A stretch of 63,989 bases of DNA, filler included, from Stramenopiles sp. TOSAG23-6 (Eukaryota): assembly GCA_900128565.1 (NCBI GenBank). It is 5 parts of 5 records of this genome, joined end to end, with 100 filler letters (N's around TTAATTAATTAA, not from the genome) between each part and the next. Parts side by side here need not be neighbours in the genome. Positions count along the whole stretch, not along the records: positions 25,772 to 38,532 come from LT636190.1; 4 more parts are not named here. The stretch is one strand, 5' to 3'. Under the pieces are notes generated by a model. The model made no database searches and had not been told where the DNA came from. It saw only the letters and a program-made list of their open reading frames with translations. Positions within the stretch are counted from its first letter, which is position 1. Each line of letters starts with the position of its first letter. Positions 1 to 59,026 of the stretch are shown in pieces. The position numbers and the translations under genes are program-made.

Positions 1-56
1 TTTTGTACCTAACAATTTTTTTTAGATTTTTTTTGAAATATTTTTCCAAAATACAG

Positions 57-1592: not shown

Positions 1593-2984
1593 TTACCATG
1601 CTTCTTTTGGTTTCCTTCTATGTTTCTTTCTTTCAACCTTTTCCCCTTCGCGCTGTCCTTTTTTTAATCCTTTCCGCCAAGTCATATATTTTAGAAAAAT
1701 ATTTCAAAAAAAAATCGTTAGGTAAAACATTTCGTACGAAAAAACAATTCGAAATTGAAAAAAAAATAAAACATAAATTTTCTTCAAATACGTTGGATCA
1801 TATGGATCTTTTTTAATATCTATTTTATCAAGTGGGTCTTCTTTATCAATTGCCTCAAATTGTTTTACCAAATCTCGCATACTTAATCTACCTTCCGCCT
1901 TTTTCAATAATGCTTCTTGCCGAATTTCTTCAGCACTCTTTCCGCTTCGTTTTCCTAATTTTTTGTCTTCAGCAGCTTGCAATCTTGCATCTTTTGCCAT
2001 TTGGCGTATATTTCTTGCTTTCAGTTTTCGTCTTTGCATTCGCATGGCCATATTTCCTTCAGGCATTCTCTCCCCAGATTTGTTTTTTGCGTTTTCCATT
2101 TCTGATTCAATTTCTAATTGCCTTTTTTCGTCACGTCGCTTTTCTTCCTCAGCTGGTGTTAGTTTTAATCTCTTCATTCGTCTACCATTTCTATTTTTAC
2201 GGGCTTTTGAAGAATTAGCCTTCATTATTTCGTTATGAACACCATATTTCTTTTCATCTTCATCTTGTTCACCTTCGAGGAGACCAATAAAATGATTTCC
2301 TTTAACGCTCGCAATCAAATAGTTTATGTCTACATTTTTGTCTTTGAAAGCCTCCTTTCTTTTCTTTGCCATATTTAACCAAAATTTCCTTCCCAGAACT
2401 TTTTTACGTATTACTGTCTGTAATTGATTTGCGGGGAAGAGTAATGCAGGATGTGTTCTAGCAAATCCCATGAAATCCTTTTTACTAACTTCTGTGAGCA
2501 TGACTGGGTCACAGAAGACTTTTATGTCTTTCATAATTTGTTTGGCACGTGAATTATTTTTCCATCCCGATCCATATACTTCCTTTACAATAAGTTCCAT
2601 TTCATTTTTATCTATTTCCCCACTGTTATCGAGATCATATAAGTCAAATGCAAACGACAACATTGACGGTGTGTCACAGGTACAATAATTCCAAAGTGCA
2701 ACTGCTAACTCTCGAAAATCAAGTTCTCCAGAAGAATCGGCATCAAACATTGAGAAACATCGCTTGGCAAATGCTGTACGTCGCATTTCAAGATATCCAA
2801 AAAACTCTTTGATGGAGATTTCTCCACTAGCATCGTCGTCCATTTCCAAAAATGCAGTGTGCATTTTTTCCAAGTCATCGTCATCAATTTTGAGTGCTTC
2901 GAAAGTATGTTTATATACGGATAGATTTGGATGTTTTGACCAGAAATCAACTCCCGATATTTTGCTACTTCCACAGATCCCCAT
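1593..2984 (-). CDS. Myristoylated EF-hand Ca2+-binding protein (calcineurin B-like N-terminus) with a charged tail; one intron 1684-1776
   Basis: MGICGSSK N-terminus; EF loops DDDASGEIS, DADSSGELD and DLDNSGEID. Removing the intron continues the frame ...LKKMTWRKGLKK...KEAW*. Confidence 0.8.
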
Positions 2985-10541: not shown

Positions 10542-11696
10542 TTGAATACTCGTTAAAGTTAGGGTTTTGTTTAATGTTCTCGACATTTTCCCACTCTTCT
10601 TGAGACAAATTCCTTTCTTCTACATTGTTTGCAGTCCTAAATGAGATAGGATCTGATGTGTGTTGACTTTCTTTTTTGCTTGCAGTCCTAAATGAGATAG
10701 CATCTGACGTGTGTTGACTTGCTTTAATATAAAAATTCTTAACCACAGCCCAGCTTCCGATAAGGAGGGGCGATATAAAGATGACTGATAGTACGATGCG
10801 TACCAGCCAAGGAGCTTTCTTCTGAGATTCAGAATCGTCCATTATCATTTTATATACATTGAGGACTAAAGGTGTGAAAAGGGTTACAGTAACTGCGCAT
10901 GTACTGTGAATAATATTTCAAAAAAAAATCTTAGGTACAAAATTTCGTATGAAAAAAATATAAATTTGAAATTCATGATGAAAAACATACATCTCATCCA
11001 GGTTGACATTCGTGAAAAATAGGGTTGAAACTTCGGGAAGCAAAATGGTAAATTGATGGCTAAGGGTAGTGTCACGGTTCCAAAAATATGATAATATAGG
11101 AGACTATTTTCTCCAGTGGTTGCATTCCAACCGAAATAAAATGAGCACAAAATATATAAAAAGTGAACGACGAACGAGACGTTGACGGAAATCCCGATTG
11201 CAACAGCAGCAACAAATCTATGTTGATCAATTGGTGTATATCCTGGTTGAATTATAGCAAGTTGATGGGGAGTTAGACCGTATCGATGTGCCCAAGTCTG
11301 AATTCTTGCCTTAATCTTTGGGTCTCTGAAAATGACGTCACTTAGGTAAGCTGTGTTATACTTTTCTTGGATAAGTTGAGCAAGCAATCGTCCATCCGTA
11401 TCCGTGTTAAGCATAATATGGGCTACTGCACATGGAACATCAAAGCGATCTATAAATACCGGATTTCTTTTCCCTGTTACGACGTCGTTAACTGGGAAAA
11501 TGCCTTTATTGATGTACTTTTTTAAAAAAAAGATTACTCGACTATCGGCAGTCGTGAGCAGTTGTAGCACGTACGTGAGATGAGTTTTAATTCTCGAAGT
11601 TTCTGAATCCCAAGCTGTTGGCTCTCGATGGCGTAAAGTGACAAATGAAGAATTTCCTATTATCGCATTGATGGGATCTATGCATTTGGGTTGCAT
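10525..11696 (-). CDS. Membrane protein with a bacterial-like uncharacterised N-terminal domain; intron 10899-10990 (GT-AT)
   Basis: Intron removal joins ORF 10884-11696 to ORF 10525-10848 in frame (WMR|CAVTVTLF...YKMIMDDSE). Several hydrophobic segments. Confidence 0.65.
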
Positions 11697-12109: not shown

Positions 12110-12731
12110 ATGAAGGACGTGTTTTCGTATTTCGTGTCCTGGATTGCATCAATTGGTTTCATTGTTACCTTTCTCATTATGGACCTTTTTTTAGCAGAAG
12201 TGAAAGTGAGTGTCAGCCATAAAAACATTAATAGTGTTCTCAATCTTTCTTGTTTGAGGATGGCGCTAGTATTACAGCCATATTTAGTTGATAGTCTTTT
12301 TGTTTTTTGGTTCTGTAGCATATGGTTTGTACTCTGTCTACATCGTGAGTTTGATTCGCTTGGCAAATCGTCCTCATTTAAGTCCTGGGGTTTCGTTGGT
12401 GTTGGTATAGCACTCTTTCAACTTTCAACGGACTCGGCCATTTTCCACCTGAAAGATGTATGTTTTCATTTTTTTTTGCCTATTTTTTTTTCGTACGAAA
12501 TTTTGTACCTAACGATTTTTTTTGAAATATTTTTTCACAATACATGATGTTCTCTATGGAGTTATAGTTTTTGTGTTTGGTTTATTTCTGTGGATTTTAT
12601 TTCTAATTTTATCCGTCACAACATCTAGTTATGACATTCGTGAAAATGTTCGGAGTTTTGATGTATTTAAAAAAATTATGAGAGAAAACTTTGTACTTTC
12701 TTCTGAAGTTGGTATAAAAAAGTCATTTGCA
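12110..12731 (+). CDS. Partial multi-pass membrane protein, cut by the scaffold end; intron 12458-12545 (GT-AT)
   Basis: Intron removal joins ORFs 12110 and 12522 in frame (HLKD|DVLYGVIVFVFGLFLWILFLIL). The 3' boundary is uncertain. Confidence 0.5.
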
Positions 12732-25771: not shown

Positions 25772-25865
25772 GAAAAATATTTCAAAAAAAAAAAACTAAA
25801 ATTTGTTAGGTACAAAATTTCGTACGAAAAAAATAAATTTGAAATTGAAAAAAAATAAAACATAC

Positions 25866-27833
25866 ATGACATCTAAAGTATCTTCAAGGATATCGAAAGT
25901 TTCATCGAAATTTTCACCAAATTTTAAGGCAGATGTTCGAAGCACCTTTAGGAGCATTGACGGCGAAGAAACTCCAGCCATTACAGCTGCCTCTTCACGA
26001 TTCAATATTGTAAAAATATATGTTTTTTTTGGTTTTGGTGTAAAAACAATTGTTAGTTACTAACATTTTGTCCAAAAAAAAAAAAAATTCGAAATTTGAA
26101 ATAAAAAAATCTTTTTTGTGTTTTGTGTAGGAAAAAAAATTTCAGAAGAAAACAAAATGATAAAAACGTACAAGAGCCTCTGTCGCACCTCCAGCACAAC
26201 TGATATTACCGGACCTCATTCCACCTGCTGCACCAGCTAACCCTTTCAACCATTGATTTAATCTATTTACTAAAACAACACAATTTTGACACTCTGCCTT
26301 TGTGACATTTTTTTTTGTTACATCGTCTCGTCGCAGCAATCGAAGATATCGAGCAGCAGCGTACATATATTGTGAAAAAATATTTTTTTTTTTTGAAATT
26401 TTTTTGTTTTTTTTGTTTTTTTGTTTTTTTGTTAGGTACAAAAAATTTTTTACAAAAAAAAAAAAATAAATTTGAAATTGGAAAAAAATAAAATACCAAT
26501 GAAGCTCTCTATAAGACGGAAACCTAAAAATTTGAGGAAGTTTTGTTCTATCTTCTAAATCTGAAATTGCTAATTGTTTGGGGAGTGCAAAAGCATGAAT
26601 ATAGTTACCTCCAAATACTAAAGAATCGGCTGGTGTAAATGTAGTTTGAAGAAATATTTTTTTTTGATTTGTTTTGGTTAGGTACAAAATTTCGTATGAA
26701 AAAAAAATTTTTTTGATTTGTTTTGGTTAGGTACAAAATTTCGTATGAAAAAAAAAATTGAAAAAAAAAATTGAAAAAAAAATCATGAAAACGTACATAC
26801 TGCATGAATCCAACCCGAAGGTAGAAATAATGTATTACCAACAGAGACATTTACTCGAAAACAATCATCACATAAATCTGCAAAAAATATCTCAGATTGT
26901 TTTTCATTTTGAACCCATTCTTCATACTTTTTGAGATTACTTTTTGTTGGTGGAATCATCAAAAATATTTTCTTTCCTCGAATGATACTGTGTTTGTACA
27001 ACAATATTTCAAAATTTTATTTTTTTTGTTAGCCTTATTTCCAAAAAAAAAACTTAAATTTGTTAGGTACGAAATTTCGTACAAAAAAAAATGAAATTGA
27101 AAAAAACGTACTGATACCACACACTAGAGCCTCCAAAGTCAATATGAAAATCAGTATAACTACCTGCAACTGACATTAAACAATATTTTTGTACTCTGGG
27201 AAAGTCACCTGAATGTATACGAGATTTTGGCCACGATGTGTACAAAAAACTAATATCACGAACGACACTTGGAGGTTCAATCAGTTGGCCCAGGGGAGAA
27301 TTTGATACTTCTAGAGATATAACATTAAGAATTCGATCACGTTTTTTTGAAGGGCAAAAGTCTCCATAATAAGAAGCCCAATCACCCAAAGTCCATCCTG
27401 TCAACTGTCTTTGACTTGCCACTTCAATGACCTCTACAGAGACAGCTCTACCCACTGCCTTTTCTACATCCTTCACAGAAAAAGGTTTATTTGGAACTCG
27501 AAGACCCAGTCCTTGTTTGCGTTTTACAATGAAAGGTTCAGCAAATGCATTTGTTGAAGAAATCCATTGTTTTGTGAGAGTGGATCCGTCATGAAGCTGA
27601 CGAACTGAATGTTTTGAAAAAGAACTTTCATTTAACAATATTTTACGAAATTTTTCAGAGTCAAAAATGGGAATACCACCATCAAGGTCTGTATAATTCA
27701 TTTTACCTTTGCTTTTAAGCCTTGCACTTCGTACAGGCCGATGGGTGTCAATAGTGGGTAACACACTAGACACAGATGTCGGTGGAGTATCTTGTGGGGG
27801 TGGCTTCGATTTCATCCATTCAGGCATAGACAT
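25866..27833 (-). CDS. JmjC histone demethylase, KDM2/KDM7/JHD1-like, 3' truncated; introns 26988-27111 (GT-AG), 26639-26796 (GT-AT), 26365-26496 (GT-AT), 26003-26171 (GT-TG) and one running from 25865 to the scaffold edge
   Basis: LNVISLEVS, PRVQKYCLMSVAGSYTDFHIDFGGSSVWY|HIIRGKKIF, LPSGWIHAV|FTPADSLVFGGNYIH and FRFPSYRELH|WYAA are all restored on intron removal. Confidence 0.9.
26365..26496 (-). other. GT-AT intron that fixes the splice register
   Basis: No AG anywhere in the intron; GT...AT removal gives the conserved HWYAA. Confidence 0.85.
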
Positions 27834-28085
27834 TATAACACTACTAATAATATTAACTTTATGACTTCTCAAAAATTATTTTTCTAGTACGTACCCTAGC
27901 CTACGTATTTTACCACGACTACAAACAAACTTTTTTCGCAAAATTGACTCATGACTCATGATGAGGCTAACCCTAACCCTAGTCTAGTCTAGCCGGAGGA
28001 TTTCAAGATTCAATTTTCAAAAGGCCTTTTCGCGTTTCCGATTAAATTTTTCTCTTACCTTTTTCGTTCTCATGTTCAACTAGTA

Positions 28086-30535
28086 ATGCGACGCTTTCAA
28101 GTTATAATAGTACTGCTTTCAGTTGCAACTATTAGCACAATAAATGCATTGAATGAAACAGCTTCGCCTATTTTGACTTCAAGAGAAGAAAAAAAACACT
28201 GGGAAGCTATCGCTGACAACTTATTTTTGGAAAGTCTACCTTCGGATTCTTTACATGAAGAGTTGCAGCGTGCAGCAACTACGTCATCTTTTGCTCTTCG
28301 AATCTTTGTCGATCGGATTTTATCCCAACGGCCTTTGTTGAAAGTGTCAGATCTTGCACATAATTTGCAGACAGCAACCACCGGCTGTGCTGGTCCATCA
28401 AACGAAGAAATAAAGACACATTCCCGATATTTGTGGGAAAGTGGTGATTTGAGTGAATTGAATATGGAAATTTTATATACACAAGCCAGAGAGTGGCCAT
28501 TTTGCGCAGCGCTACAAAATGATATTGCGGCGTTTGAACTTCGTTCTCAAAATTTCAAAGAAGCAGCCAAACGTTTATTACTTGCACTTCGGCTCTTACC
28601 GGATGGAACAAAAGGTAAAACTTACATTAAAAATATGTATCTTCTAATAGATAACCTTGAAGTCACTGTGAAGCAAAACCCAGCTCTTTGTAACAAATTG
28701 GTTGGCGATGGTATATATATCTTTAAAGCTTTCTCACATTTTTTTTTGAGCCGTCGTGAATTTTCAAAAGTTGTGTCAATACAAAAGAGAATTGATTCTT
28801 TTTATTGTACGTTCAAATTCGAATTAGTTTTTCTTCGCGGAAAAATCAATTTGAAATTATATCCAAAGAGCTTTTTTCATAAATTTTGAATATGACATAT
28901 TTTTTCACAATACATGTATAGGTGTTGACGGTCAAAAACGATCTTCGGGGACGTGCGCTAGTCCAAATGGGCAGAGACATTCAACTAATTTTTCTGATTC
29001 AGTTTCAACATTTCGACAAAAAAATATTTTGGATCAAAAATATATAAAAACGAATTTGACAACATTGACTGAAGAAAATAATAAACAACAAAATGATAGT
29101 TGTAAGACACAAGATAAAGAAATATGCAGAAATGTATGGAAAGAAAGTGATATCATGAAACTTCGAAGTCGAAGTCTGAAATGCCCAGTCATTAATTTCT
29201 CTGAAATTAATTCAATGGAATTTTATCACAAATACGTAGAAGGAAAAGATGGTTTTGGAACTCCTGTTGTTCTTCGAGGTGCAATAAACCATTGGCCTCT
29301 ATTTCATCTGGCATTGGATTCGAAAAGAGTAGAAAAAAATGAAAAAAATGAAGAAAAAATTGAAAACAATAAAATAAAAAATAAAAAAAATGAAAAAAAT
29401 GAAAAAAATAAAGAAGAAAGAAAACGTGTCGCTGCAAAACGTCTGTTACATTGGATGAGGGATAATTGGGGTGCGTCGTGGGTCAAAGTTAGTGTTGCTC
29501 CTGGAGGTAAGTTTGATTCTGTAGAACCATGGAATATGTACGTTTTCATCATCAATTTCAAATTTATTTTTGGTACGAAATTTTGTACCTAAACATTTTT
29601 TTTTTTTTTGACATTTATGGTCATTTATGGTTTCATCATTCATTTCAATTTTTCAATTTTTTTTTTTTCATACAAAGTTTTGTACCTGATGATTTTTTTT
29701 TTGTTTTTCATAATACATGTGGCAGAGAAAAGATGGTTCAAAGTGGACGAGTGAAAACAAAAAAGGAAGCTCTGGTGTTCTTGCTCTCCCTGCACAAACA
29801 TGCTCTTCTTATGAAACATTTGTAGAATTACTCATCAAAAGGGAGCATAAAAATAATATATCACATCATCAAAGTCCTATTTCATCTGAAAAAAAACAAG
29901 AAAACAAAAAAAACAAAAAAAACAAAAAAAACAAAAAAAACAAAAATTTAAATTTTCATTCATTTTATGATAAAAATCCAAGTTTTTATTTACAATATTT
30001 TGACACGTTGAGATTAGGAGGAGAAACATGTATCTTTTATTTTTTTTTTTTTGTATGAATTTTTTTTTCATAAAAATTTTGTACCTAACAAAAAACATTT
30101 TGAAATATTTTTCCAAAATACATTTCTCTCGGAATTAGCCCCTGAACTTAAAATTATTCGAAATTTAGGATCTACACCAGGATTGGTGTTAGATGCAACA
30201 AATATTTGGCTTGGTGAAGGGTGTACAGATGGCAAAATACATGTACATTTTAATCATTTATTTTTTTTTCATACAAAATTTTGTACTTGGCCATTTTTGT
30301 AACAACAAAATCAATTTTTTTTTAAGAATTTTTTCACATTACATTTTGATCCACACGAAAACATTTTAGGTCAAGTAGTCGGTCGAAAACTTGCTGTTTT
30401 GTATCACCCAGGAGCATCAGCTCAATTATATCATACAAGAAGTACAGGAGATGAAAAATATATACGTTTTCAAAATTATTTGTATTTTTTTTTTTTTTTT
30501 GGTATGAAATTTTTTACCTAACATTTTTTAAAACC

Positions 30536-30566
<31 letters not shown>

Positions 30567-31081
30567 ATAATTTTTCACAATATATTTATTTCAGGCTTGG
30601 TTAAACTATGAATATCCAAATACTTTTACAAGAATAGATGATTTTAAAAAGCTTCCTGTCACTAGTCATTTCTCCCCAGTTAACATTTTGAACCCTGATT
30701 ATGAAGCTCATCCTGATTATCGTGATGCTACTGCCATTTTGTGTGATATACAACCAGGGGATGCATGTATGTTTTTTTTTTTTTTTTTACAAAAAAATCG
30801 AATTTTTTTTTTTTTTATAATTTTTTTTTGAAATATTTTTCCAAAATACTTTATTCATCCCGTCGTTTTGGTGGCATGAAGTTTTTTCATGGCCACAATC
30901 TATTCAAGTGAACTTAGAAGATGAATCTAAAATCCATAATATACTAAACAAAAGTGAGATTCAAAAGAACGATTGTCCGATAGGTCATATAAAAAACAAT
31001 CCGAATGAAGCTGACGATGCAGGTTACAATTTTGCTGTGAATTTTTGGTATAAACCGTCTAAATCTTCAGTCTCATGTACG

Positions 31082-31119
<38 letters not shown>

Positions 31120-31140
31120 TAATTTTTTACCTAAAAAATT

Positions 31141-31177
<37 letters not shown>

Positions 31178-31319
31178 CGTAATTTTGTACCTAACAAATT
31201 TCAATTTTTTTTTTGATTTTTTTTTTGATTTTTTTCACAATACATGTAATCATGACAATCCACTCGATAATAGACAATGTGAAATATCAGGAACACCATT
31301 ATTTCCTACGATGAGGTAA
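28086..31319 (+). CDS. Signal-peptide, TPR-like plus JmjC (cupin_8-type) 2-oxoglutarate oxygenase; introns 28807-28915, 29538-29718, 30030-30123, 30243-30344, 30462-30585, 30767-30851, 31077-31245
   Basis: The spliced frame restores PVVLRGAINHWP, NIWLG...KIH|FDPHENILGQVVGRK, FSPVN..NPDYEAHP, IQPGDA|LFIPSFWWHEV and AVNFWY. Confidence 0.85.
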
Positions 31320-31639
31320 ATATATATATATAATAAACAAATCATAGTTAAATATATATGTAATAAACAAATAATAGAATTCAAAAAAAATAACAATGAA
31401 ACAAAAATGTTACAACAATGTCATTTAAAAGAATTTTGTATAATCAGTTTTCAAATATTGATTTATTCTTATCATTAATTTTTCACCTAAATTTGCTTTG
31501 TACCAAATTTCATACCAAATTTTGTATGTAACGAAAATAAATATCAAATTCAGAATTTCTTTTTGAAATATTGTTTCATTATTCAAGTATACTACCAACA
31601 ACACAATGATATCTCTACTCTTTCATAATTTATGACTAC

Positions 31640-33695
31640 TCAACTTGTGAATCCTGTTTGCATCGAATATGTATTTTGGAAAAATATTTCAAAAAAAAAA
31701 TCGTTAGGTACAAAATTACGTACGAAAATATTTTCGAATTTGAAAAAAAATAAAACATACATTTAAATTCTCCATTTCCTGGGGGTAAAGTCGCTAATTT
31801 TATATCTCCAATAATAGTTTGATTTGCAATACTTTTAGCCGAATCAGGAAGACCATGTATTTTGGAAAAATATTTCAAAAAAAACCCCTCAAATTTGTTA
31901 GGTACAAAATTTCGTATGAAAAAAAAATTCAATTTCAAATTGAAAAAAAATAAATAAAACATACATCCCATAAAACATCGAGGTAGTGTAACATTTCAGT
32001 AAAACCACGTGGCATTACATTTATTTGAGTAGATGCCATTGTATACAAGGAATGAAGCAGTAAACGAGACCCTAACGCAACCTTAATCGCTGCGTCATTC
32101 AAGTATTTTAAAAAATATTTGAAAAAAAAAAAAAAAAATTGTTAGGTACGAAATTTCGTACGAAAAAAAAAACTTCGAATTTGAAAAAAAATAAAACATA
32201 CAAAGCAACTGTTGAGGAATTTTTCCGGATTCCCATCTCTCGAATTTTTTGTTGCTGAGATAGAATAAGTCTCAACTCGTCATACTGAGCCCGAGCTTTA
32301 CTTAGTTCTTCCTGTGCATCTTTTGTCGTAGTCTCATTTTGCTGCTGTGAATGGCTCGCAAAACTTGTGTTGTTACCGGGAGTATTAGGGTTAGGGTTAC
32401 TTTTTGGCTCAACCGCGACATTCATTTTAATACCAGTCGTGCTTTTCTGTGGTAAAGTTTCAATACTAGTACCATCCTGAGATGCTGCATGATTCATTTG
32501 TGTTGGAGAGTAATTATGTAGTGTCCTTTATGATGAAACAAAATGTCAAAAAAAAAAAATTGTTAGGTACAGATCTTTTTTTGGGAAAAATAATTCGTTC
32601 TTACATTGATAAATAAATTAATAAATTCATGATGGAAATGTACATGGCTGGTTGTTGTGAGGGTGCTTGCGACATCTGTGACATCTGGAGAAACCCTGTT
32701 GGTGACATTGATACACTTGCTGAAGGAGATGAATTTTGTCGTTGCTGCTGCATCTGTGTTTGTTGTGCCATTACAGGTGACATCTGTGTTTGTTGTGCCA
32801 TTACAGGGGACATCATTTTATTCATTAGATCAACTTGAGCACTGTTCATCGGGTTCATCAACCCACCACCACCATTAACTCTATTCATCAATTGAGCAAT
32901 ATTCTGCATTTTGTGTTGCTGTTGCTGCATCTGTTGATAATATGTTCCAGCTGTAGGATTATTTCGCATTGCTTGGCGTTGGAAAATATTTTGGTCTCCA
33001 TTGGAAAGCTGAACGAGGTGATTTTGCGGTGGTAAAGTAGCATTTACAGTGACTGTTGAAGCTGATCTTGTTGGTGTTGGGGTTGGAGATGGACCCCTCC
33101 GAATTCTCTTACGTCTTGTGGTTGGGCGCCGTCCGCTATTGAATCGTCCGTCTTTGTGTGGTACACATTCTGTGCCCGCTGCGATACAAGATTTACATTG
33201 GGTAGCGCCTTCTTCGAATATGCATTTTTGATGACGTTTATGGCAGCGCTCACATGTTCTGGTACTACCTTTTCTCTTCTTTTTTGTACTCATGTTTCCC
33301 TGTTTTCCCGTGGTAATATTATTTACGATGATGTTTCCGCTTTGGTTGCTCGCGCAAGTACTCGCGCAGGCATTTACGCGGGTGCACGTCTTCTTTTCCG
33401 CGCTGTTGTTCGCGCTGCTTTCCTGTAATTTCTGTATTTCGGATTCCGTTACTTTGAGCGAATTCACTAATACGTGTTTTATATCATCGCCGTTGACTAC
33501 GGCACTCACGTTTAGAGCCGGGATAGGATTGCTGGTGGCGACGACAGGGAGAGGAGTAATAGTCGTATTAGGGGAATCTGAATCCACTTTTACATGTACC
33601 ACGGGGATTAAATTATTCCGCGGGGTGTTTGCAGATGCCTCGTTTTCTTTCATAGGACTTATAATATCATTTTCATCATGTACAATAACTTCCAT
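31640..33695 (-). CDS. Zn(II)2Cys6 binuclear-cluster transcription factor-like protein with a Q-rich region; introns 32526-32643, 32101-32201, 31855-31964, 31669-31760
   Basis: CERCHKRHQKCIFEEGATQCKSCIAAGTEC = C-x2-C-x6-C-x8-C-x2-C-x6-C, preceded by basic KKKRK; the frame is continuous after intron removal. Confidence 0.75.
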
Positions 33696-34007
33696 GATTT
33701 CAAGATGTGATTTCAAAATGATCTAGATAGATCAGTAATGCTGTATTAATTGTGCGTCTATCTTGCTTGCTCAAGGAGTCGCTCAAGGAGGAGAAAAAAA
33801 GTAAAGCACCGAAATATCCGATTGCTATTAGGTACAAACTTTTGTACGAAATATTGTGAGTCAGCATAAACCAGTAAAAATATAAGACTTGGTGAGAGAC
33901 ACGAAAACCAAGGAAAACAAACGCAAAACAAACGACGACACAAAAAAATATTTTTTACAGCTTTTTTACACTCTCTTTCTTTTTTTTTACTTATCAGTCC
34001 TTGTACA

Positions 34008-35248
34008 ATGAGATGTTTGAAGCATCTTACAATATTGTTATCATTTTTAGCGTGTCTCTCGACATTTGCAAAGCTATCAAAAGTAGTGACTGATGTGATG
34101 TGTCTAAACAATGTATATAAAACCTGTAATATTCGAGTCGCTGTAATATATGGTCTTGCAAAAGGGCAAAACGAAGATGCATTTGAGCAAGGTTTTCTTG
34201 CGGCAATGAGTGAGGTCTCCACTAGATATTCTTCAACTTGGATTAATCTGTTTAAATACGAAGGGAAGCAAATAGCAGACGTACTTGAAGTATTAACAGG
34301 TTTTGATTTATTACTTGTCAAAAGTAATTGGTACTGGAGTGTAGACACTTTTGTGAGGCAATATCTCAGAGGGGTAATGTGGGATACAATTCCCAAGATA
34401 CTTTTGATTTCAGGAAGTGCTTCCCCACCGCCTGGGTCTGAGATTTTATTTTATAATGTGTTACTCTATGAAACGGAATGGTATAAACCCGAAATAGAAA
34501 GACATCCTAGAATAGTGCATGCATTTGGAATCGATACAAGAAAAATGAAACCCCTACCTGTATGTTTAATTTTTTTCAAATTCTATTTTTTTTTCGTACG
34601 AAATTTTGTACCTAACAAATTTTTTAGATTTTTTTTTGAAATATTTTTCCAAAATACCTGAATTTATGGCCAAACACGGTAATATAAAAAAGTGGGACTA
34701 TTTATCTGCTGGAATGCTTGTAGGGTATAAAAGATGGCACAAACTTGCTCATGAACGTAAAGGTCGACGACTTCTCGTAGGTCGTGCTGATCAGCCTGAA
34801 AGTGAAGCGATTGTAAAAGAGTTAGAAGATGCGGGTATATGTTTTATTTTTGTTTCAATTTCGAATTTATTTTTCGTACCAAATTTTGTACCTAACGAAT
34901 TTTTTTTTTTTTTTCGGTAAAAAAAAAAATATATTTTTCACAATACTTGTTGTAGTTCTTCCAGAAGTTTCGTACGAAAAATTATGCGAGTTGATTAATC
35001 TATCACATCATGTATATGTACCCGCAGCCCTACATGGTGGGGGAGAAAGATTAGTTCTTGAAGCACGTGCAGTTGGGACTGATGTTATTGTCGAGAGTGA
35101 TAACCCAAAGTTGATTGGAATGGCAAACGGACCTATATACTCACATGATTATTATGCTGTACAAATATTAAGAGGTATAAAAATGTCCCTTGGTGTAAAT
35201 ATAAGCCCTATAACAGATACAAATGATAAGAATACCAAAGAGTTATAA
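34008..35248 (+). CDS. GT-B (GT4-like) glycosyltransferase with an N-terminal signal/anchor; introns 34560-34659 (GT-CT) and 34837-34948 (AT-TT)
   Basis: GYKRW..L and YVPAALHGGGERLVLEARAVG motifs; three ORFs fuse in frame (KPLP|EFMAKH; EDAG|VVVLPEV). Confidence 0.7.
34560..34659 (+). other. Type example of the non-AG intron family (GT...CT)
   Basis: GTATGTTT...TTCGTACGAAATTTTGTACCTAAC...TTGAAATATTTTTCCAAAATAC-CT; removal restores the glycosyltransferase frame. Confidence 0.8.
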
Positions 35249-35336
35249 AGATATGTAAATTTTAGCATTCAATATACAAACTCTAACCTGAGTCTATTAA
35301 ACAATGTCTCAACCAAAGGTATATAGAAGTTTGGTC

Positions 35337-35888
35337 TCACCTTCTTGAGAATTTCGACCTTTTCTTCCTTCTTTGTCCGTCACGTTTGACACGATCACCA
35401 AAGAAGTGTTTCTTCTGGAATGCTAACACTGCTTCAGGAATACCATCATTAGATGTACAAGAGTCTATGTCCGAAGACAACTTCTTGGAAGCTACAACAA
35501 GGTTGAAGTTACCCCGGCGAACTTTGAGATCTCCTGCCTCAAATTTCTTTCTTTTTTTCTTTTGCTTCCTACTCAGGTCTTGTTCGCCTTCATCATCTGA
35601 ATCAAAATATATCCGATTCTGATTAGATGTTTCATTGTCTACTATGTTTTGCTTTTCTGATTCTTTCTCTTGTACTTCCTGAACACTTTCCAGGAGACCC
35701 GTCGGGAGGGCATCCGCGTCAGAACTAACTCGGCGACGTTGACGAGTACGCTTCCTTGTGCTACTCCCTGATGCTAGTTTTTGTGACTTAATTTTTTCCA
35801 ACGCTGAACTACGGGAAGAAACATTACTTACCTCTTGTGGAGCTTCATCATCTGAATCACTGCTACTATATATAATAGGTTCGTCCAT
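35337..35888 (-). CDS. Small charged nucleolar-type protein (possibly NOL7/Bud21-like)
   Basis: SDDEAPQEVS motif and basic clusters; the family call is weak. Confidence 0.55.
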   Translation of the reverse strand: MDEPIIYSSSDSDDEAPQEVSNVSSRSSALEKIKSQKLASGSSTRKRTRQRRRVSSDADALPTGLLESVQEVQEKESEKQNIVDNETSNQNRIYFDSDDEGEQDLSRKQKKKRKKFEAGDLKVRRGNFNLVVASKKLSSDIDSCTSNDGIPEAVLAFQKKHFFGDRVKRDGQRRKKRSKFSRR

Positions 35889-36149
35889 TCTATTTTATAA
35901 TATGAAACTAAGCTAGACCTGTGTAGTACCTACTGGCAGCTATACGACTGTGGTACCTTTGATGTTGATCGAACTGACTTCACACAGGAGCATTTTTCCA
36001 TTTTTCGTGTTCGTGTTCCAGGTCAAAATCAAATCAATCACACACGCACTCTTTTTACCAGTAGGAGGGAGGCTTATAAATTATAATATAGTAGTCTAGC
36101 TAGAAAATTTTAGTCTCTTGTAATTAGTTATGCCATTCAGTAAAACACG

Positions 36150-38407
36150 ATGAAGATATTTGGATTGACCGCATCGTTTGTATTGCTAGTTTTTTGTATC
36201 TTAAATCAGTTATTTGCCAATGCGAATCAAAACTTTGATTCTTCAAGGGTTGCAAATGTCTTTATTGTACAGCTTCATGAATATTTGTTGCCCTCCAAGC
36301 TTACTGCTTTAATTGAGACTATTATTGGGTCTCCAATAGATGCAACAAATACCAGCCTACAAAATTTGAATTCAAACGATACTAGTGATGTAGTCAAAGG
36401 ATGGAAGATGGTTGAACGGCACAATAAAGTATTTCGTGAGGAAATCCCAACTGACTTTGCAGTAATTCATTGTAGCGGTAACACAAAAGAAGTTTCTGCT
36501 ATTATCAAAATCATTAAAAACTCAAGTGTTGTACGCAATGTTATACCCGAGCGCCGATACTTTGCGTCTTCAAAAGTTGCCGATATAGGGAAACAATTTA
36601 AACATTCACAGTGTCCAACTAACTCAAGTGAAAGTGAAAGTTTTTCTTCCAACACTCATGATAGTTACACATACTTTAATCCCAATATTCCCAATACAAA
36701 TCAACAAACCAGTAACCAAAATATGAATACGCGAAAGTTGCTGTCAAGTAGCTTAGGAAATTCTCGGTCTTCTGTTGATCCATTACATATTGGTAAAAGT
36801 CCCCCATACGTACCACATCTTTCCTATTATGAAAGACGATCAATGTATGTTTTTACTTTTTTGAATTTTTTATCTAAATTTTTTTCGTACGAAATTTTGT
36901 ACCTAACAAAAAAAAATCAAATTTCAAAAAAAAAAATATATTTTTTCAACAATACATGGTCGAGGAATTTGGAGCTCCTCTGTTGTGGAAGAATAATCTC
37001 ACGGGAAGTGGGGTCAAAGTTGGAGTGTTAGACACTGGAATTCGCGAAAAACATCCACATATTCTTCATCTAAAGGAACGTAGTAACTGGACGTACCAAA
37101 ACTCCGAGGCAGATGGAGTAGGACATGGTACGTTTTGCGCTGGTATGATTTCTAGCTCGTATCCAAAATGTGCTGGTTTTGCACCTAACTCTGAAATTTA
37201 CACATTTAAAGTGTTTACGGACAACCAAGCTTCGTTTTCGTCATGGTTTTTAGACGCTCTCAATTATGTCCTTTTTAAGGAAATTGAATTAGTGAATCTG
37301 AGCATTGGTGGACCAGATTGGCGAGATGCCCCATTTATTGATAAAATACGGGAATTGGGTGGACATGGTATCGTGTTTGTATCTGCTATTGGTAATGATG
37401 GTCCATTATATGGCACTTTAATGAACCCTGCGGATCATATGGAAGTTATTGGGGTCGGTGGAATAACCAATACTGGAGAAATTGCACAATTTTCATCAAG
37501 AGGTGCAACAGTTCATGAATTGCCGTATGGGTTTGGTAGGGTTAAACCAGATATTGTAGTATATGCTGAAGGACTTCTTGGTTCTACTATCTCTGGAGAT
37601 TGTCAAACTCTGAGTGGTACTTCAGTAGCTGCACCTGTAGTTACTGGTGCTCTTGCATTGTTGATGAGTATCCCTCGTTCAAATAAGTCAATTCCAATAA
37701 ATCCAATAAAATTTGATTTATCTCTGGATACATCAAATGATAAAAAAATAAAAAGTGAGAACCCTAACCCTAATAATGACAGAAATAACCCTAACCCTAA
37801 TGACAGAAATAAAGGAATAAAAAACAAACTTCGTTGGAATCCTGGAATAATGAAACAAGCTTTAATACATTCAGCAAAACCGATAAAAGGGATGTATGTT
37901 TTATTTTTTTTTTTTTACAAAAAAAACGATTTTTTTTTTCGTACGAAATTTCGTACCTAACAAATTTAAGTTTTTTTTTTGAAATATTTTTCCAAAATAC
38001 AAAAGTATTTTTGAACAAGGTGCAGGTGTGATGAATCTTCAAGGTGCCGCTGATTTTCTACAAACATATCCTCCAGAAGGCATGTACGTTTTTAACATCG
38101 AATGGTATACTTTTTTTTTTCGTACGAAATTTCGTACCTAACGAATATTTTTTACGAAAAAAAAAAAAAAAAAAAAAAAAAATATTTTTTTTCACAGTAC
38201 ATGGCAACATTATTTCCATCTTCACTTGACTTCACTGATTGTCCCTATATGAGTCCATTTTGTGAACAACCTACGTATTATTCTGCAATGCCAATTGTCG
38301 CAAATGTAACTATATTAAATGGAATGGGCTCTCATGGCTACATTGAAAAACAACCTATTTGGAAAGGGGGTGAAAATGGTGAACATATAAAAGTACAAAG
38401 TTCTTAT
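36150..38407 (+). CDS. MBTPS1: Site-1 protease (SKI-1/MBTPS1 subtilase), 3' truncated; introns 36845-36957, 37894-38002, 38084-38202 and one from 38408 to the scaffold end
   Basis: VGVLDTG, GHGTFCAG, NLSIGGPD, SAIGNDGPLYGTL.NPAD, ELPYGFGRVKPDIV, LSGTSVAAPVV, FEQGAG, DCPYM.PFC.QP.YY and NVTILNGMG; RKLL processing site. Confidence 0.92.
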
Positions 38408-38532
38408 GTATGTTTTATTTTTTTTTTTTTTTACCGAAAAAAAAAAAAATCGATTTTTTTTTCTTTTTTTTTTTTCGTACGAAATTTTGTACCTAACAAA
38501 TTTTTTTTTTTTGGTAAAAAAAATTTTGAAAT

Positions 38533-38632
38533 NNNNNNNNNNNNNNNNNNNNNNNNNNNNNNNNNNNNNNNNNNNNTTAATTAATTAANNNNNNNNNNNN
38601 NNNNNNNNNNNNNNNNNNNNNNNNNNNNNNNN
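38533..38632. other. Artificial scaffold linker
   Basis: N44-TTAATTAATTAA-N44. Confidence 0.95.
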
Positions 38633-38755
38633 CGTATGTAATAATAGGAAAAAATTAAAAAACTTAAAATTGTTAGGTACAAAATTTCGTACAAAAAAAA
38701 AACAAAAAAAAAAAAAATTTTAGGAAAAAAATTGAAAAAAAATAAAACATACATG

Positions 38756-44403: not shown

Positions 44404-44936
44404 TCATTTTTTATCTTTCTGCATTTCCGAAATTCCCTCATCAGTCATAGTATGATTATTATGTTTATTAGCGGAACTATTTTTCTTTCGGATACATCGA
44501 ACAATTGGCATTACACAAATTGTTAAAAATAATACAAAAAATGTGATAAGTAGCGCTAAGATATAATCCGGGAAAAAATCTATTGTACAATCTGGATAGT
44601 GTGTTCCCATGGTAACGATGGCTTCTTCTGGAGTTTGTTTTGTTTCAGTTACATTTATTGTGAAAAAAAATTGCAAAATTTTTTTTTTTTGAAATTTGGA
44701 AATTTTTTTGGAATTTTTTTTTTGGACATTATATTTAAAATTCATGATGAAAAACATACCTGCCCTTCGTTAACAAATGGAGCACAGCTTTCCCAAGACA
44801 AAACAGGTTTGTTATCACTATAACCTGTCCATCGAATACAAGGTCTTTTAGATACATCTATAGATGAGCCACTAGTAGGACTATCATTAAATACTTCAAC
44901 AATTGCAAAATTATGATTTGGATAAAATTTATATGC
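44404..44936 (-). CDS. 3' exons of a single-pass membrane protein, left copy
   Basis: Mirror of 45025-45557. Confidence 0.5.
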
Positions 44937-45024
44937 AAATATTGTGAAAAAATATTTTTTTTTTTTTTTTTTTAAAAATTAATTTTTAAAAAAAAAAAAA
45001 AAAAAATATTTTTTCACAATATTT

Positions 45025-49196: not shown

Positions 49197-51257
49197 ATGA
49201 CTGACGAAGCAGCCCTAGAGACTTGGTATGAACTTCATGACGAAAAGCTTTTCGAAATTAGCCAACAACAAAAGTTTCGAGAGCGGTTACGCAACTTTCC
49301 CAGTAGACACGTCGTTTCAATGCAGAAGCTACAGCCCTATATTCGTGGTTTTCTTTGTAGGCGAGATAGTGTACAACAAATATTTATACAACAAGCCCAG
49401 GATAGGCAACGCCGTGTTTCTTTGGAGATTGATGTTTTACGTAAAAATATTGGAAAAAAATTAACTTTTACTGGAAAGAAACGAAACTTTCTTCGCCTCT
49501 TTCGAAATACATCCACCAGTGAGTCTGATACATTACATTTTCCACAATTTATACATGTTTTAGAAGTGTGTCTTTTTGGTGTTGGTGACACAAATTCCAA
49601 AAATAGCCAATGTAAAACTGAGTTTTCTTTCCGTGAAAAAAAAAATAGCCAATGTAAAACTGAATTTTCTTTCCGCGAAAAAAAGCTTCTTTTTCTTTGT
49701 TTAGCTTCAGAAGGTTTAGAATTAGTACACATAACAGAGTTCATTACATTTATATTTGGACCTCAATTTGCCATGGAAATTTTAGAAAACGAATCAATAC
49801 AAAGAGAAAATGAAAAATGGAATGAAACTCATAAAAAGAANNNNNNNNNNNNNNNNNNNNNNNNNNNNNNNNNNNNNNNNNNNNNNNNNNNNNNNNNNNN
49901 NNNNNNNNNNNNNNNNNNNNNNNNNNNNNNNNNNNNNNNNNNNNNNNNNNNNNNNNNNNNNNNNNNNNNNNNNNNNNNNNNNNNNNNNNNNNNNNNNNNN
50001 NNNNNNNNNNNNNNNNNNNNNNNNNNNNNNNNNNNNNTAACCCTAATACAAACCCTAACCCTAATATAGTCAAAGTGACTGAGAAACAGACTACTATTGT
50101 AACAAATACAAATGAGAGATTAGAATATATAAAAACAGTGAATTATACAAAAAGTTTGGCTTCATTGATGAATATTGATTATATATACATAGACAGTGAA
50201 AAACAAAACAAACAAAACAAACAAAACCAAATAGATCAACAAAACAAACAAAACCAAATAGATCAACAAAACAAACAAAACAAACAAAAAGAAGTCTTTA
50301 TATACTCAATTAAATCTAATAAAGATGTTCAACAACAACAACATAAATTTTCTTTGAATAGTAGAGAGAAAGATTCGCCAAACCAAATAGATCAAACATA
50401 TTCTGTAACTAAAAATGCTACAAAAACACAATCAAACATTATCAAGAAGAATAATACGCCTATACATGCTAAAAATCCTAAAAATCCTAATTATCCTAAT
50501 GAAAAAAGACATTCAATGGTAAACCCTAAAAACCCTAAAAACCCTAAAAGCAATCATAAAAAACTGCCAAATTATTCATTAATGGCGTCTACTACCGCTA
50601 GTAGGAGTAGAAAGCTAGCAGTTACAACAAAACAACAACAAAAACAACAACAAAAACAACAACAACAACAAAGCAAACAACGGCCTAAAACAGCACCAAG
50701 CAAAATTTTACCGCGATTTATTTCTGGTATGCATTTCATGCAAACAACATCATGTACAAATCGTCGTATTCGTTGTAATACAATAGATTCAACTTTATTT
50801 AAAAACAAAAAAAAGATTATAGATAAAATCAGTAATAATGCAAGAATACTTGAAGAAACAATTCAATCAAAATTACGTAAAATAAAACCTACATTATTGG
50901 ACATAAAGACATCTCAAATAGGTAAAGAAGTTAGTGGACGTGCCTACGTGTATATTTTATTTTTTTTTCAATTTTTTTTTTGTCTATATTTTTTTTTTCG
51001 TACGAAATTTTGTACCTAACAAATTTTTCTAAAATTTTTTTTGAAATATTTTTCCAAAATACATGTATGGTGGCGTAGCTGCAGATGAAGTACGGCATAG
51101 GAATATTCTCGAACATTTGGAAAAGAATAAACGTAACCCTAACCCCAACCAAAAATCATATATAGCACGAAATCCTTGGAAGCCAACAGGAGGGACACGA
51201 AATATACATTTTGATCAATGTAATGAGGAAGTGGGGTTAACTAGACAAGAATTACAT
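49197..51257 (+). CDS. IQ-motif protein with low-complexity Q/N/K tracts, 3' truncated; introns 50950-51064 and 51258-51374 (both GT-AT)
   Basis: MQKLQPYIRGFLCRR IQ motif; the frame joins GRAY|VYGGVAADEV. An N gap lies at 49841-50037. Confidence 0.6.
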
Positions 51258-51377
51258 GTATGTTTTATTTTTTTTCAATTTTTTTCCTAAAATTTTTTTT
51301 TTTTTTGTTTTTTTTTTGTACGAAATTTTGTACCTAACAATTTTAAGTTTTTTAATTTTTTCCTATTATTACATACG

Positions 51378-52404: not shown

Positions 52405-54758
52405 TGTATATAGGGTGGAAAAATGTAGAAGAAAGAACAGCACCTTCCCCAACTTCTTCAAGACAAAATCTTTTTTCAGTGAAGGGTGACATGTTTGATA
52501 AGGTTTTTAGTAGTGTGAGAAAACGAATTCAGAATGGTACAATTAGTAAACAATCAACTAACAGTATTACAAATGTTGTATTAGACAAATCAGTGAGTAA
52601 ATCTGTGGATATTGATAAATCGTATGAAATTTCAGGTGTAGAGATTCAATCAATACTTAATGGTTCTTATTTTCCATTTCGATATCGGGAAAAAGATAAA
52701 ATAATTCCGCCAGATCTAAAAGTAGAAGATCGTAGGGCATTGATTTTTGCAATGAAAATGCAAGCAAACCATAGAGATAGAAGTCGGAGAATCCAGAGAG
52801 AGAGAGAAAAACAATTAGAAGCGTTGAAAGAACGAGATAAAAAAAATGAGTACCAAAAAAAACTCCGAGAAGAAAAAGTTCAAAAACTAAAAGACATAAA
52901 ACGGCAAAAACTTTTAGACCAAAGGAAGATGAGGCTTAACCGTAAAGCACAACGTGATGCATTATTAGTAGCATCAGGCCTCAAAGAATTGAAAACTCCT
53001 TTTAAAAGAAAAACTGCGATGATTGGTCTTAAAGTACTTCAAGAATTTCAAACGTCGTTAGGGTTAGGGTTAGGCTCATATAAAACAATGAAAGGCTCAG
53101 AAAATCTCCTGTTAAAAAATGCAGAAGCTCCTCTCTTTTTACAAATGGAACATCGATATGATGAAGATTTTTTAATGCCTGAATTGCATCGAAGAAAAGA
53201 GAAATTACAAAATTTACATGTACGTTTCTTTTATTAGGGTTAGGTTTTTTTTTAACTTTTTATGACTATTTGTTTCTATTATATTTTATTGATTTTTTTT
53301 AAACTTTTTGTAAATAATTGTGGACCGAATTAACAAAATCAAATGTACTACAAAACAATATTTTCCTAAAATACATCAATTACGAGGAAAAACAGCAGGA
53401 CGAGATTTAAGAGATAAAATTCAAAAAGATGGAAAATATTACAAATTAGCCTTACAGAAATCCAAAATGGAATTGAAAAAGAGAAAATTAGAACGAATTG
53501 AGGCATTTAATAAGAAAAAACCACCGAAACCTCCACGACGGCTAACACGATTATATCAAATGGAGAAGAAGAGGAAAGCGTTCGTTTTTATAATGAATTT
53601 TAAATTATTTTTTTTTTTTCATAGAAAATTTAATACCTAACAATGTTTTACTAAAAAACAATATTTTTCACAATACGTTCTTGACCGTAAAAAGCAAGAG
53701 GAAAAGACAAAAAGACTGAAGATTGCTCGTGAGTATTCAAAGAAAGTAAGATTGAAACATAAACCTAAAAAATGTGCATCAAAAGTTGCAGAAATTTATC
53801 ACAGAAAGCAGGAATTACTAAATAGAAACAAAAAGCGAATATCTTCAAATTCAAATACAAAAACTTCTGATTTGAAACAATCGCGTGGATTTTCAAATAT
53901 ACCAAAGTATCGTAATATTATAGAAAGAAAGAAAAAAGATAAAATTTTAACTTTAAAAGATCTAAAAGAAGCACAAGAATTGCAGAAAACAAAGTTAGAA
54001 TCAAATCAATTGGATCTTTTACAAAAGAAAGAGAGAGAACGACAAGCCAGAATCGTTCAGAAAGCTTTATATAAAACGGAGCGTATTAAAAGATTACAAT
54101 CAAAAACGAGGTNTCCGTTTGAGCTTGATACTGATCAACTTGATGATGTAACTGAAACCTATATCGACGTTATGAAAGCTAAAATGGCAATGATCAAAGC
54201 AAAACTATCAAAATTGAAGGCTCTAGAGGAAGCAAAGGATACAGAAAGCAAGTCAATACAGAGTTCATTACATGTCTTGAGTAAATATCCTCGATTTAGT
54301 ACGTTTTAAAGATTAATTTCACTTTATTTTTTCACCTTGAAAATTTTGTACCTAACAAATTTCGAATGTAAAACTCTTTTCTCTGTACATGGGGTAATGT
54401 TGACGTTAATGGTAGACAATTTATGGTAAATGCTAGACAAATAAAACGTAAAGTTTTTGTGACTGTAGGAACTTCAGAGAGTTCTTCAGAGACAAAAAAT
54501 GGCATTAGGTATACAATAGAGAAACAACTTCAATCACCTGAAAATTTAAAAATGTCCGAGTTGAAATCTACCATTATTGGCATGTTGAAAGATAGAGACA
54601 CATCGCAAGAAGATGAAATCATTGAAGATGTTAGAGACACATCACAAGAAGAATTTTCAAATGAAATCATTGAAGATCTTAGAGACACATCACAAGAAGA
54701 ATTTTCAAATGAAATCATTGAAGATGTTAGTGACACATCACAAAACGTTTCAGGATAA
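52405..54758 (+). CDS. Basic coiled-coil protein with acidic C-terminal repeats; introns 53220-53376 (GT-AT), 53580-53678 (GT-GT), 54299-54390 (GT-AT)
   Basis: Four ORFs fuse in frame (NLH|QLRGK; KRK|ALDRKK; PRF|RGNVDVNGRQFMVNAR). C-terminal RDTSQEEFSNEIIED repeats. Start codon uncertain. Confidence 0.7.
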
Positions 54759-58098: not shown

Positions 58099-59026
58099 AT
58101 GAAATATTTGACGCCTCTACTGTCTAAAGTGGATATTATATGTTTATTGCAATATTTTGGAAGCTTTCTGTTTCTTTTTGTGTCGCTTAAAGTTTTAATT
58201 CACTTTACTAATAATCGCCTTGCACGAAACAGCTCACTTGGAGCCTACCTGGTTTTATGTTGTATGATTAACGGTTTCCAAGCATATCGTGGATGTATAT
58301 ACTATTATGAGGTACATTATTCTATTGGTTCGATGGATATTTATGCTACAAGTGAGGCGAGGGCAATGCTTCAAATTCCACTATTAAAACCTCTTCTATA
58401 TGCTGGATTAGCATATACCATAATAGGACTAATGTTGGATATTATAATTGGTCCTCCTGTGTTATCTTTCGAAATGGTATTACACCATATAGCCATGTTT
58501 GCTGCAATCTTCATATCTATCACATTTCCTGTAGTTCAATACCATGCTCCCTACTTTCTAGGTGTTGCTGAAATAAGTACAGTTCCGTTAAATGTAATGA
58601 ATATTTTCAAATATTTTCCAAGTATGAAGTTAGCATACCCAAGAGCATATAAGATATCTCGAATACTCTTTGCAATTTTATTTATACTTTTACGTGTTGT
58701 GTTTTGGGCATTTCATATTTCTCAATGGGCATCAGATTATATGACCTGTACGTTTTCATCATTAAGCTCAACTTTACTTTTTATCGAAAAATTTGTAGCT
58801 AATGATTTTTTTTCTCTACGATTTTTTTCTTCACAATACATACTTTCGCATAACGAGTGTAAAAGATAATACAAATGTTTCTTATGGAATGGCTATAGGT
58901 TTGTCCTTGGGATGTTTTTTGACACTCCTGCAATTGTTCTGGGGAGTTTTAGTCACTAAAGGCCTATATAGAGCTCTATTTGGAAATACTCGGGACAATA
59001 TTGAAAAAACAATTAAAGCAACATGA
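58099..59026 (+). CDS. TLC-domain (TRAM/LAG1/CLN8) membrane protein; intron 58748-58841 (GT-AT)
   Basis: MVLHH, AEISTVPLN, FAILFILLRV and LQLFW; the frame joins YMT|YFRITSV. Confidence 0.82.

Follow-up and report, generated by a model that had tools for sequence, protein, structure and literature searches.

A family of introner-like introns with a conventional-looking donor and a variable last dinucleotide in Stramenopiles sp. TOSAG23-6

Almost all the introns recognised in a stretch of 63,989 nucleotides from Stramenopiles sp. TOSAG23-6 (assembly GCA_900128565.1; the whole stretch is called the window hereafter) are copies of one element family of about 100 bases. The copies begin with a conventional-looking 5' splice site, finish with a conserved box closed by TAC, and are predicted to be excised two nucleotides (nt) after this TAC. 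These two last nucleotides are AT in 23 of 31 copies and are frequently identical to the last two nucleotides of the upstream exon. This identity is most simply explained by a duplication of two base pairs (bp) on insertion, splicing then restoring the gene, an explanation to which we would give slightly better than an even chance. The window is AT-rich eukaryotic DNA and is composed of contig pieces joined by N linkers.

One element family in the introns of the window

The family is characterised by its core, a 16-nt palindrome followed in most copies by CCTAAC. Searched on both strands with at most two mismatches, the palindromic core pattern has 84 matches where 1.15 were expected, and no more than 5 matches were obtained in any of 100 shuffles. 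A nhmmer profile built from 11 copies has recovered 62 matches. The repeats are 85 to 181 nt long and consist of a start RTAYGTTTT (usually GTAYGTTTT), a T-rich left arm, the core GTACGAAATTTYGTAC-CTAAC, a T run and a conserved 3' box reading ...TTTTTC(C/A)A(A/C)AATAC, completed by two further nucleotides. From this single 64-kb window we have retained a scored set of 31 non-redundant copies, spread over at least 14 genes, whose two boundaries were fixed by hand curation. Copies mirrored within a perfect inverted duplication were counted once, and the copies cut by N gaps (25772-25865, 38408-38532 and 51478-51534), the partial copy 1-56 and four copies whose ends are uncertain (near 150, 1071, 10300 and 26171) were left unscored.

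The similarity between introns of unrelated genes reaches 95% identity (80 columns), and the median for 465 pairs is 72%. The best pairs are 90-95% identical across 76-91 columns, and the copy 59887..59977 (minus strand, AT/AT, where flank pairs are written as exon end/intron end) is the one nearest to other copies, at 90-95% identity. All full copies are sense-oriented and lie in regions predicted from the genes to be transcribed, and the three intron phases are evenly represented (10/9/12). The distribution is clustered: 18 scored copies are found in one contig piece of 12,761 bp and none in the neighbouring piece of 12,785 bp. Even phases and clustering would be indirect signs of a recent gain. 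The first of these pieces (25772-38532) carries 4 to 7 family introns per gene, and the second (12887-25671) contains open reading frames (ORFs) of 1472, 713, 680 and 637 codons. Some copies are enlarged, either by an internal tandem duplication of 49 nt (26639-26796) or by two element units in tandem (29538-29718, plus strand, GT...AT, AT/AT, in a cupin gene; 430-608, plus strand, AT/AT, with two core units). These structures suggest replication slippage, or a second insertion beside or inside a resident copy. Downstream of the intron 430-608, three tandem 12-nt units corresponding to half of the element core (GTACAAAATTTG-like) are present in an open frame at 680-719.

One sequence family at unrelated loci, as seen in the 31 scored copies, together with a sense orientation and a removal that is predicted to restore the coding sequence (25 of 29 copies in the frame test described below, and six colinear junctions), fits the working definition of introners, as far as sequence comparison can tell. 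The GY-AG or AT-AC boundaries taken as canonical in published introner surveys are, on the other hand, not those of the family. These repeats could also be old introns that selection on splicing signals or gene conversion has kept alike, the AT bias then being a splice-site preference of the organism. Such a preference might in principle shape both junctions, and the arrangement (C)AT|GT...(C)AT|G indeed mirrors the classical (C)AG|GT...(C)AG|G with G swapped for T. We nevertheless consider this origin improbable: the identity of 90-95% over 80-90 nt in unrelated genes extends to parts without obvious role in splicing, the phase distribution is even, adjacent 12.8-kb pieces contain 0 and 18 introns, and the internal tandem duplications and twin units speak against it.

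Boundaries of the excised sequence

In the frame test, the 5' end of the intron was placed at the first base of the element, the 3' end at k bases past TAC, and the longest downstream ORF was scored. The value k=2 yields the longest downstream frame in 25 of 29 copies, where one third was expected. Two of the 25 are marginal, as illustrated by 31077..31245 (plus strand, GT...AT, AT/AT; 23 versus 22 codons). Concerning the four exceptions, the first is followed by a short last exon (31669..31760, minus strand, GT...AT, AT/AT, the last intron of its gene, for which the test is uninformative) and the second adjoins an N gap (51258..51374, plus strand, AT/AT, with a mirror copy at 38752). The third, 32526..32643 (minus strand), is a canonical GT...AG intron whose AG is situated 4 nt past the k=2 position, that is 6 nt past the element end; this is the sole cut that keeps the frame, every shorter one in that frame leaving a TAA stop. 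In the fourth, 34837..34948 (plus strand), the 5' end reads ATATG and is situated 2 nt later, and k=2 fits after alignment with the family.

Six junctions are gap-free and colinear with homologous proteins when the element plus 2 nt is removed: three in a site-1-protease gene, two in a KDM7/PHF8-like JmjC gene and one in a glycosyltransferase-like gene. The exon 36958-37893 of the protease gene (36150-38407) matches P0001, the sole near-identical public protein, whose label (EukProt GSMAST32...) suggests a MAST-3-type marine stramenopile and so agrees with the stramenopile affiliation assumed in the original prediction. P0001 is a model of this same gene built with GT-AG sites. At the three k=2 junctions, the alignment with eight homologues is gap-free, and P0001 fits the homologues worse at all three. 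The removal of 36845..36957 (plus strand, GT...AT, AT/AT) leaves a product colinear with P0003 and others, where P0001 is 25 residues short. For 37894..38002 (plus strand, GT...AA, flanks AT/AA), k=2 gives the length of the homologues, and the AG chosen in P0001, 3 nt further on, gives one residue too few. Finally, k=2 also matches the homologues at 38084..38202 (plus strand, GT...AT, AT/AT), where the inner GT...AG pair of P0001 adds 3 residues. At the fourth intron of the gene, P0001 reads through into element-derived residues.

In the JmjC gene, the exon ends around 26639..26796 (minus strand, GT...AT, AT/AT) correspond to PHF8 residues 321 | 322 (junction codon) | 323. At 26365..26496 (minus strand, GT...AT, flanks TG/AT), k=2 rebuilds a Trp-Tyr pair that is conserved in the compared structures of PHF8 and KDM2A, and a register placed 2 nt upstream destroys the Trp. 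A third copy of this gene, 26988..27111 (minus strand), fits only as a canonical GT...AG intron, its AG being situated 6 nt past k=2: this cut gives the exact PHF8 length around WYH, and k=2 adds 2 residues. In the glycosyltransferase-like gene, the removal of the 112 nt of 34837..34948 (ATATG...TACTT, with A at +1; flanks GT/TT) brings the product to the length seen in 12 homologues, and a Gly conserved among them makes ATATG the preferred register, ahead of GT...AC or of a GT...AG that is 9 nt longer. The conserved Trp (26496) and Gly (34836) thus place the 5' cut immediately before RTAYG, and the AT...AC register, in which the intron would begin 2 nt upstream and finish at TAC, is rejected because of this position; it would also require a variable first dinucleotide in 11 of 31 copies. 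For the cupin gene, homologues were sought that could bear on six further junctions; the protein search was empty, and relatives in the PDB were too distant or absent.

Two copies with other termini are of particular weight for what follows. The intron 34560..34659 of the glycosyltransferase-like gene (plus strand, GT...CT, CT/CT with a repeat extending to TACCT, phase 0) is situated in a loop of variable length in the homologues, which cannot fix its boundary; k=2 is the sole cut that keeps the frame (86 codons), and no GT/GC-AG pair keeps it inside 30 nt. The intron 32101..32201 (minus strand, GT...TT, TT/TT) is in phase 2, and taking out its 101 nt links an ORF of 108 codons to one of 54.

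Could the elements be removed through ordinary GT-AG sites located nearby, as in the public models, the AT pattern being unrelated to splicing? Most copies do have in-frame GT/GC-AG alternatives inside +/-30 nt, and 4-5 members of the family do use AG. However, at each of the six non-AG junctions compared with homologues, the canonical sites would make the product 1 to 25 residues longer or shorter than every homologue, removal of the element plus 2 nt suits 25 of 29 frames, and three k=2 copies offer no in-frame canonical pair inside +/-30 nt, among them 30462..30585 (plus strand, ATACG...AT with A at +1, AT/AT). We regard removal by such sites as very improbable, and the public gene models that force GT-AG are, judging from these comparisons, probably wrong at the family introns. 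Protein sets and intron surveys derived from such models would miss or distort the family.

Exon flanks, intron termini and the origin of the copies

The original prediction had listed 20 copies, out of 35, in which the two exon nucleotides before the donor equal the last two nucleotides of the intron. The same 20 have been recovered among the 31 scored copies and comprise 18 AT/AT pairs, the TT/TT pair at 32101-32201 and the CT/CT pair at 34560-34659. Its statement that the exon ends in AT in all three codon phases also holds, with 20 of 31 copies (7/10, 6/9 and 7/12 by phase); outside the scored introns, AT precedes GTAY at 101 of 905 sites (11.2%). Read at k=2, the intron terminus is AT (23 copies), TT (3), AA (2), CT, GT and AG (1 each).

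In 100,000 shuffles of the 3' dinucleotides, the mean number of identical pairs is 15.2, against 20 observed (P=0.003). Within the window, the identical non-AT pairs taken alone also exceed the shuffled number (P=0.04; N=31), and a Fisher test of AT versus non-AT at the two places gives P=0.012. Without four doubtful copies (N=27), these values become 0.011 for all pairs, 0.05 for non-AT pairs and 0.043 for the Fisher test. The pattern is therefore real and goes somewhat beyond the AT bias, the excess over AT being due to two copies. That splice-site selection alone produced the AT bias, as the original prediction allowed, is improbable, even if a preference may in principle have contributed.

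The remaining AT/AT copies established by the frame test and the table of flanks are 31855..31964 (minus strand, GT...AT, phase 0), 30030..30123 (plus strand, GTATC...AT), 30243..30344 (plus strand, GT...AT, repeat extending to TACAT), 10899..10990 (minus strand), 12458..12545 (plus strand), 53220..53376 (plus strand, without core, with a TACAT repeat) and 1684..1776 (minus strand, TTATG...ATAT ends), the last being doubtful as a working intron. The same two sources give the other flank pairs: AT/TT at 30767..30851 (plus strand, GT...TT, without central core), GC/GT at 53580..53678 (plus strand, GTTCG...GT), GT/AT at 50950..51064 (plus strand, with a mirror copy ending at 39263), TA/AT at 54299..54390 (plus strand) and CT/AT at 58748..58841 (plus strand). 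For 44653..44759 (minus strand, AG/AT, without core, with a mirror copy near 45202), the boundaries come from the table of flanks. Two of the copies cut by N gaps, 25772..25865 (minus strand, a profile match) and 38408..38532 (plus strand, unscored), have AT as exon flank and their 3' end in the gap.

From these observations, the following sequence of events is plausible. A non-autonomous introner would insert preferentially at (AC)AT|G(T) and duplicate 2 bp. It would bring its own 5' splice site, G (rarely A) followed by TAYGT and, in most copies, a branch-like CTAAC box beside a small palindrome, a T tract and the conserved 3' box closed by TAC. Cleavage of the RNA would fall exactly 2 nt past this TAC, whichever 2 nt follow, and the element would leave with one copy of the repeat, giving back the original coding sequence. 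The flank logo, built from 30 copies, is consistent with such a site: the element is preceded by A(17) C(12) A(20) T(25) and the cut is followed by G(16), which together form a palindrome-like ACAT|GT.

The same family, with the same non-AG splicing, could nevertheless have spread without any target-site duplication. The 3' end ...TACAT would then belong to the element itself, the copies would have been placed at ACAT|GT-like sites by blunt insertion, by capture during microhomology repair or by reverse splicing followed by reverse transcription, and the TT/TT and CT/CT pairs would be due to chance or to later mutation. The AT terminus may indeed belong to the element, because 5 of the 23 AT-ending introns adjoin a non-AT exon end. 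The mimicry of the intron 3' end by the exon also exceeds 2 nt: TAC precedes the AT or CT exon flank in four copies (30243, 51258, 53220 and 34560), where the direct repeat is 5-6 nt long, and one further copy has TACGT. Repeats of this length are above the expectation from composition, an expectation that was estimated and not computed. Moreover, the downstream exon often begins with GT(A), which resembles the 5' end of the element. A choice of junction-like targets, or a variable microhomology, fits this extended mimicry better than a strict 2-bp stagger does. On the other hand, non-AT flanks are associated with non-AT termini in the Fisher test, the CT terminus, which differs from AT by a single change at the first position, matches its own exon flank, and the pairs are identical and not complementary, which excludes an RNA-pairing cause. 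For the same reason, an RNA helix between exon end and intron end was discarded. Taken together, we consider an origin without duplication, the principal alternative, rather unlikely.

Several observations weigh against the duplicating insertion and the spliceosomal removal proposed above. The non-AT support comes from the two copies already mentioned, 11 of 31 flank pairs differ, and in 5 of these 11 the intron ends in AT beside an exon ending in GT, TA, CT, TG or AG. The inverted ends GTAT(G)TTTT and AAAATAC, reported in the original prediction, are present and short (4 bp and 3-4 bp separated by a bulge), where terminal inverted repeats usually have at least 6-10 bp, and a comparison by eye of position 4 shows no clear covariation between them. 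The transposase gene that had been proposed as a search target was not found: the 45 ORFs scanned in the window contain no transposase, integrase or reverse transcriptase domain, an absence that speaks for an origin without duplication. The window yielded no full copy that is antisense or clearly between genes, and core fragments alone are present there (for example 33824-33857 and 25468-25528), although the compactness of the genome makes this test of orientation and location weak. The first of these fragments, 33824..33857 (minus strand, GTAC...GTACCTAA, without recognisable ends), is a profile match with E=3.3e-4 and is localised between divergent genes at 33700 and 34008. The first intron base is A instead of G in two copies (30462 and 34837) and T in the doubtful copy (1776); a base other than G would be hard to use for the major spliceosome, and these might be dead copies or sequence errors. 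Finally, when the RNA of six copies is folded, its stability does not exceed that of shuffled sequences (z from -1.21 to +0.94). The sole recurring feature of the folds is a small central hairpin, the element ends being paired in some of them, and a stable RNA structure was discarded.

Of the original view of a miniature inverted-repeat transposable element (MITE) inserted at AT and supplying its duplication as acceptor, the dispersed introner-like family and the flank association are retained; a duplication made by a transposase is at most plausible, given the differing pairs. Outside the window, the core motif has 0 matches in bacterial and archaeal genomes. A search by means of the read-through peptide (ORF 31636-31995) gave five candidates, none of them significant, and among 229 proteins compared only P0001 carries the peptide signature of the element.

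Acceptor choice and related systems

Of the 31 copies, 25 contain a CTAAY box, at a distance of 33-67 nt from the cut, and 6 lack it. In 6 of the 25, an AG located between this box and the cut is skipped, which rules out the first AG after the branch box as the 3' site. A fixed distance from the branch box is likewise ruled out, by the 33-67 nt spread and by the copies lacking the box. What is constant across copies is the 3' box and the offset of 2 nt, and we propose that the element fixes the position of the acceptor, the two bases themselves being apparently free. That the 3' splice site is set by position relative to the element-borne box and not by AG, any duplicated 2 bp (AT, TT, CT...) becoming the intron end, is a possibility that we place a little below an even chance. 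Under such a rule, one small transposon would make precisely removable introns at AT sites and would have supplied nearly the whole intron complement, a scheme that we put forward tentatively and with the same reserve.

An AG acceptor is nevertheless used in at least four members of the family. Two of them, 26988-27111 and 32526-32643, are cut at an AG farther downstream and are counted as AA and AT, respectively, in the k=2 tally. In 63667..63765 (minus strand, flanks TT/AG; frame test and table of flanks) the 2 nt past the element are themselves AG, and in a copy truncated by the beginning of the window, of which the 3' part is present (1..56, plus strand, a profile match), AG follows TAC. 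The idea that AG|GT...AG became AT|GT...AT is thus only partly right. A further intron-like stretch derived from the element, at 10273-10331, has the classical flanks CAG|GTATTT...TTCCAG|A and is situated downstream of a gene ending at 10528.

Concerning the type of spliceosome, GTAYGT and CTAAC look like major-type signals. Reminiscent of minor-type introns, especially those of Physarum, are the purine at +1 (A or G), the T run after the donor, a last dinucleotide that is free and a short, fixed 3' box, in a sequence that lacks the motifs defining U12-type introns. The consensus RTAYGTTTT, with G at +5 in 22 of 31 copies, differs from the U12-type 5' motif RTATCCTT, although the R at +1 (A in two copies) and the T run are U12-like traits, and the U12-type branch motif TTCCTTRAC is absent near the 3' end of the copies. 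A scan of the window against the Rfam families gave nothing above threshold. The occasional A at +1 hints at a transformed, minor-like or otherwise permissive spliceosome that would have co-evolved with the element.

By analogy, the closest precedents are the introners of Chrysochromulina, Amoebophrya and Physarum. In the part of Gozashti et al. 2022 (PMC9860276) that describes them, the families of Chrysochromulina bring a 5' splice site of their own and obtain the 3' one through a duplication of 4 bp, always with GY-AG boundaries. Like the introners of Chrysochromulina sp., Micromonas and Aureococcus in the same part of that survey, the elements described here are short, non-autonomous, sense-oriented in genes and provided with their own 5' site, and their 3' terminal nucleotides form a direct repeat of the exon end, so that splicing would restore the transcript length. 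Unlike those families, which have duplications of 3-9 bp and GY-AG boundaries, they show a repeat of 2 nt, AT in 23 of 31 copies and a rare AG.

For Amoebophrya A25 and A120, the relevant sections of Farhat et al. 2021 (PMC7789003) report non-canonical introners and propose a MITE-like origin. These are also repeated introns with terminal inverted repeats, short direct repeats across the exon/intron boundaries and mostly non-GT-AG ends. According to the same sections, they have inverted repeats of 8-20 nt, direct repeats of 3-5 nt, no fixed end dinucleotides and the support of RNA-seq. By contrast, the present family, known from DNA sequence, keeps a 5' GT(A) with only the 3' end free, has an inverted repeat of about 4+4 nt and is a single dominant family.

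In the portion of the preprint of Larue, Elias and Roy (10.1101/2020.10.12.336362) devoted to Physarum polycephalum, a TA-duplicating transposon is proposed behind the U12-type introns, whose boundaries include GT-AT and AT-AT. The common features are short inverted termini RTAT...ATAY, a direct repeat of 2 nt, both G and A at +1 and a transformed branch signal. The Physarum introns described there have, for their part, a motif RTATC(C/T)TT, TTTGA located 10-12 nt from the 3' end and a co-evolved U12 small nuclear RNA, whereas +5 is here mostly G and a U2-like CTAAC box is found 33-67 nt upstream. Variable non-canonical borders and a pairing of intron ends are also features of the euglenid nonconventional introns, as presented in part of PMC4770533; contrary to them, the 5' site is here conventional-looking and the predicted pairing of the ends is weak and non-significant.

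The introners of the window are thus of a known kind in a new combination, with a conventional donor, a free acceptor and a 2-nt repeat. In the literature searched, no paper pairs 'introner' with MAST-3, MAST-4, Incisomonas, Opalozoa or Nanomonadea, and splice sites are not mentioned in the main text of the MAST single-cell paper or of the Incisomonas paper. The terms 'stramenopile' and 'MAST' are missing from the main texts of the introner surveys PMC9860276 and PMC12130899, whose supplementary species lists may bear on this novelty. If transcripts confirm the GT...AT junctions, the family would be a simple natural case of AG-free acceptor choice, in which one element family dominates the introns with a conventional donor and with the last two bases alone free. 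A heterotrophic stramenopile would then join the few cases, Amoebophrya and Physarum, that pair transposon-like introns with relaxed splice rules, and a genome-wide count could address whether the acceptor comes from the duplication.

Organisation of the window and neighbouring sequences

The linkers between the pieces, each composed of 44 N, TTAATTAATTAA and 44 N, are found at 12787-12886, 25672-25771, 38533-38632, 51378-51477 and others. The order and adjacency of the pieces may be artificial because these linkers join them. The region 38633-51377 is a perfect inverted duplication (99.99-100% identity) centred near 44980, whose arms, N gaps included, are mirror images; a palindromic assembly or a chimera of whole-genome amplification seems likelier here than a biological feature. 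Finally, two divergent intronless paralogues, at 5332-7317 (minus strand) and 7568-10048 (plus strand), are predicted to encode teneurin-like EGF repeat proteins.

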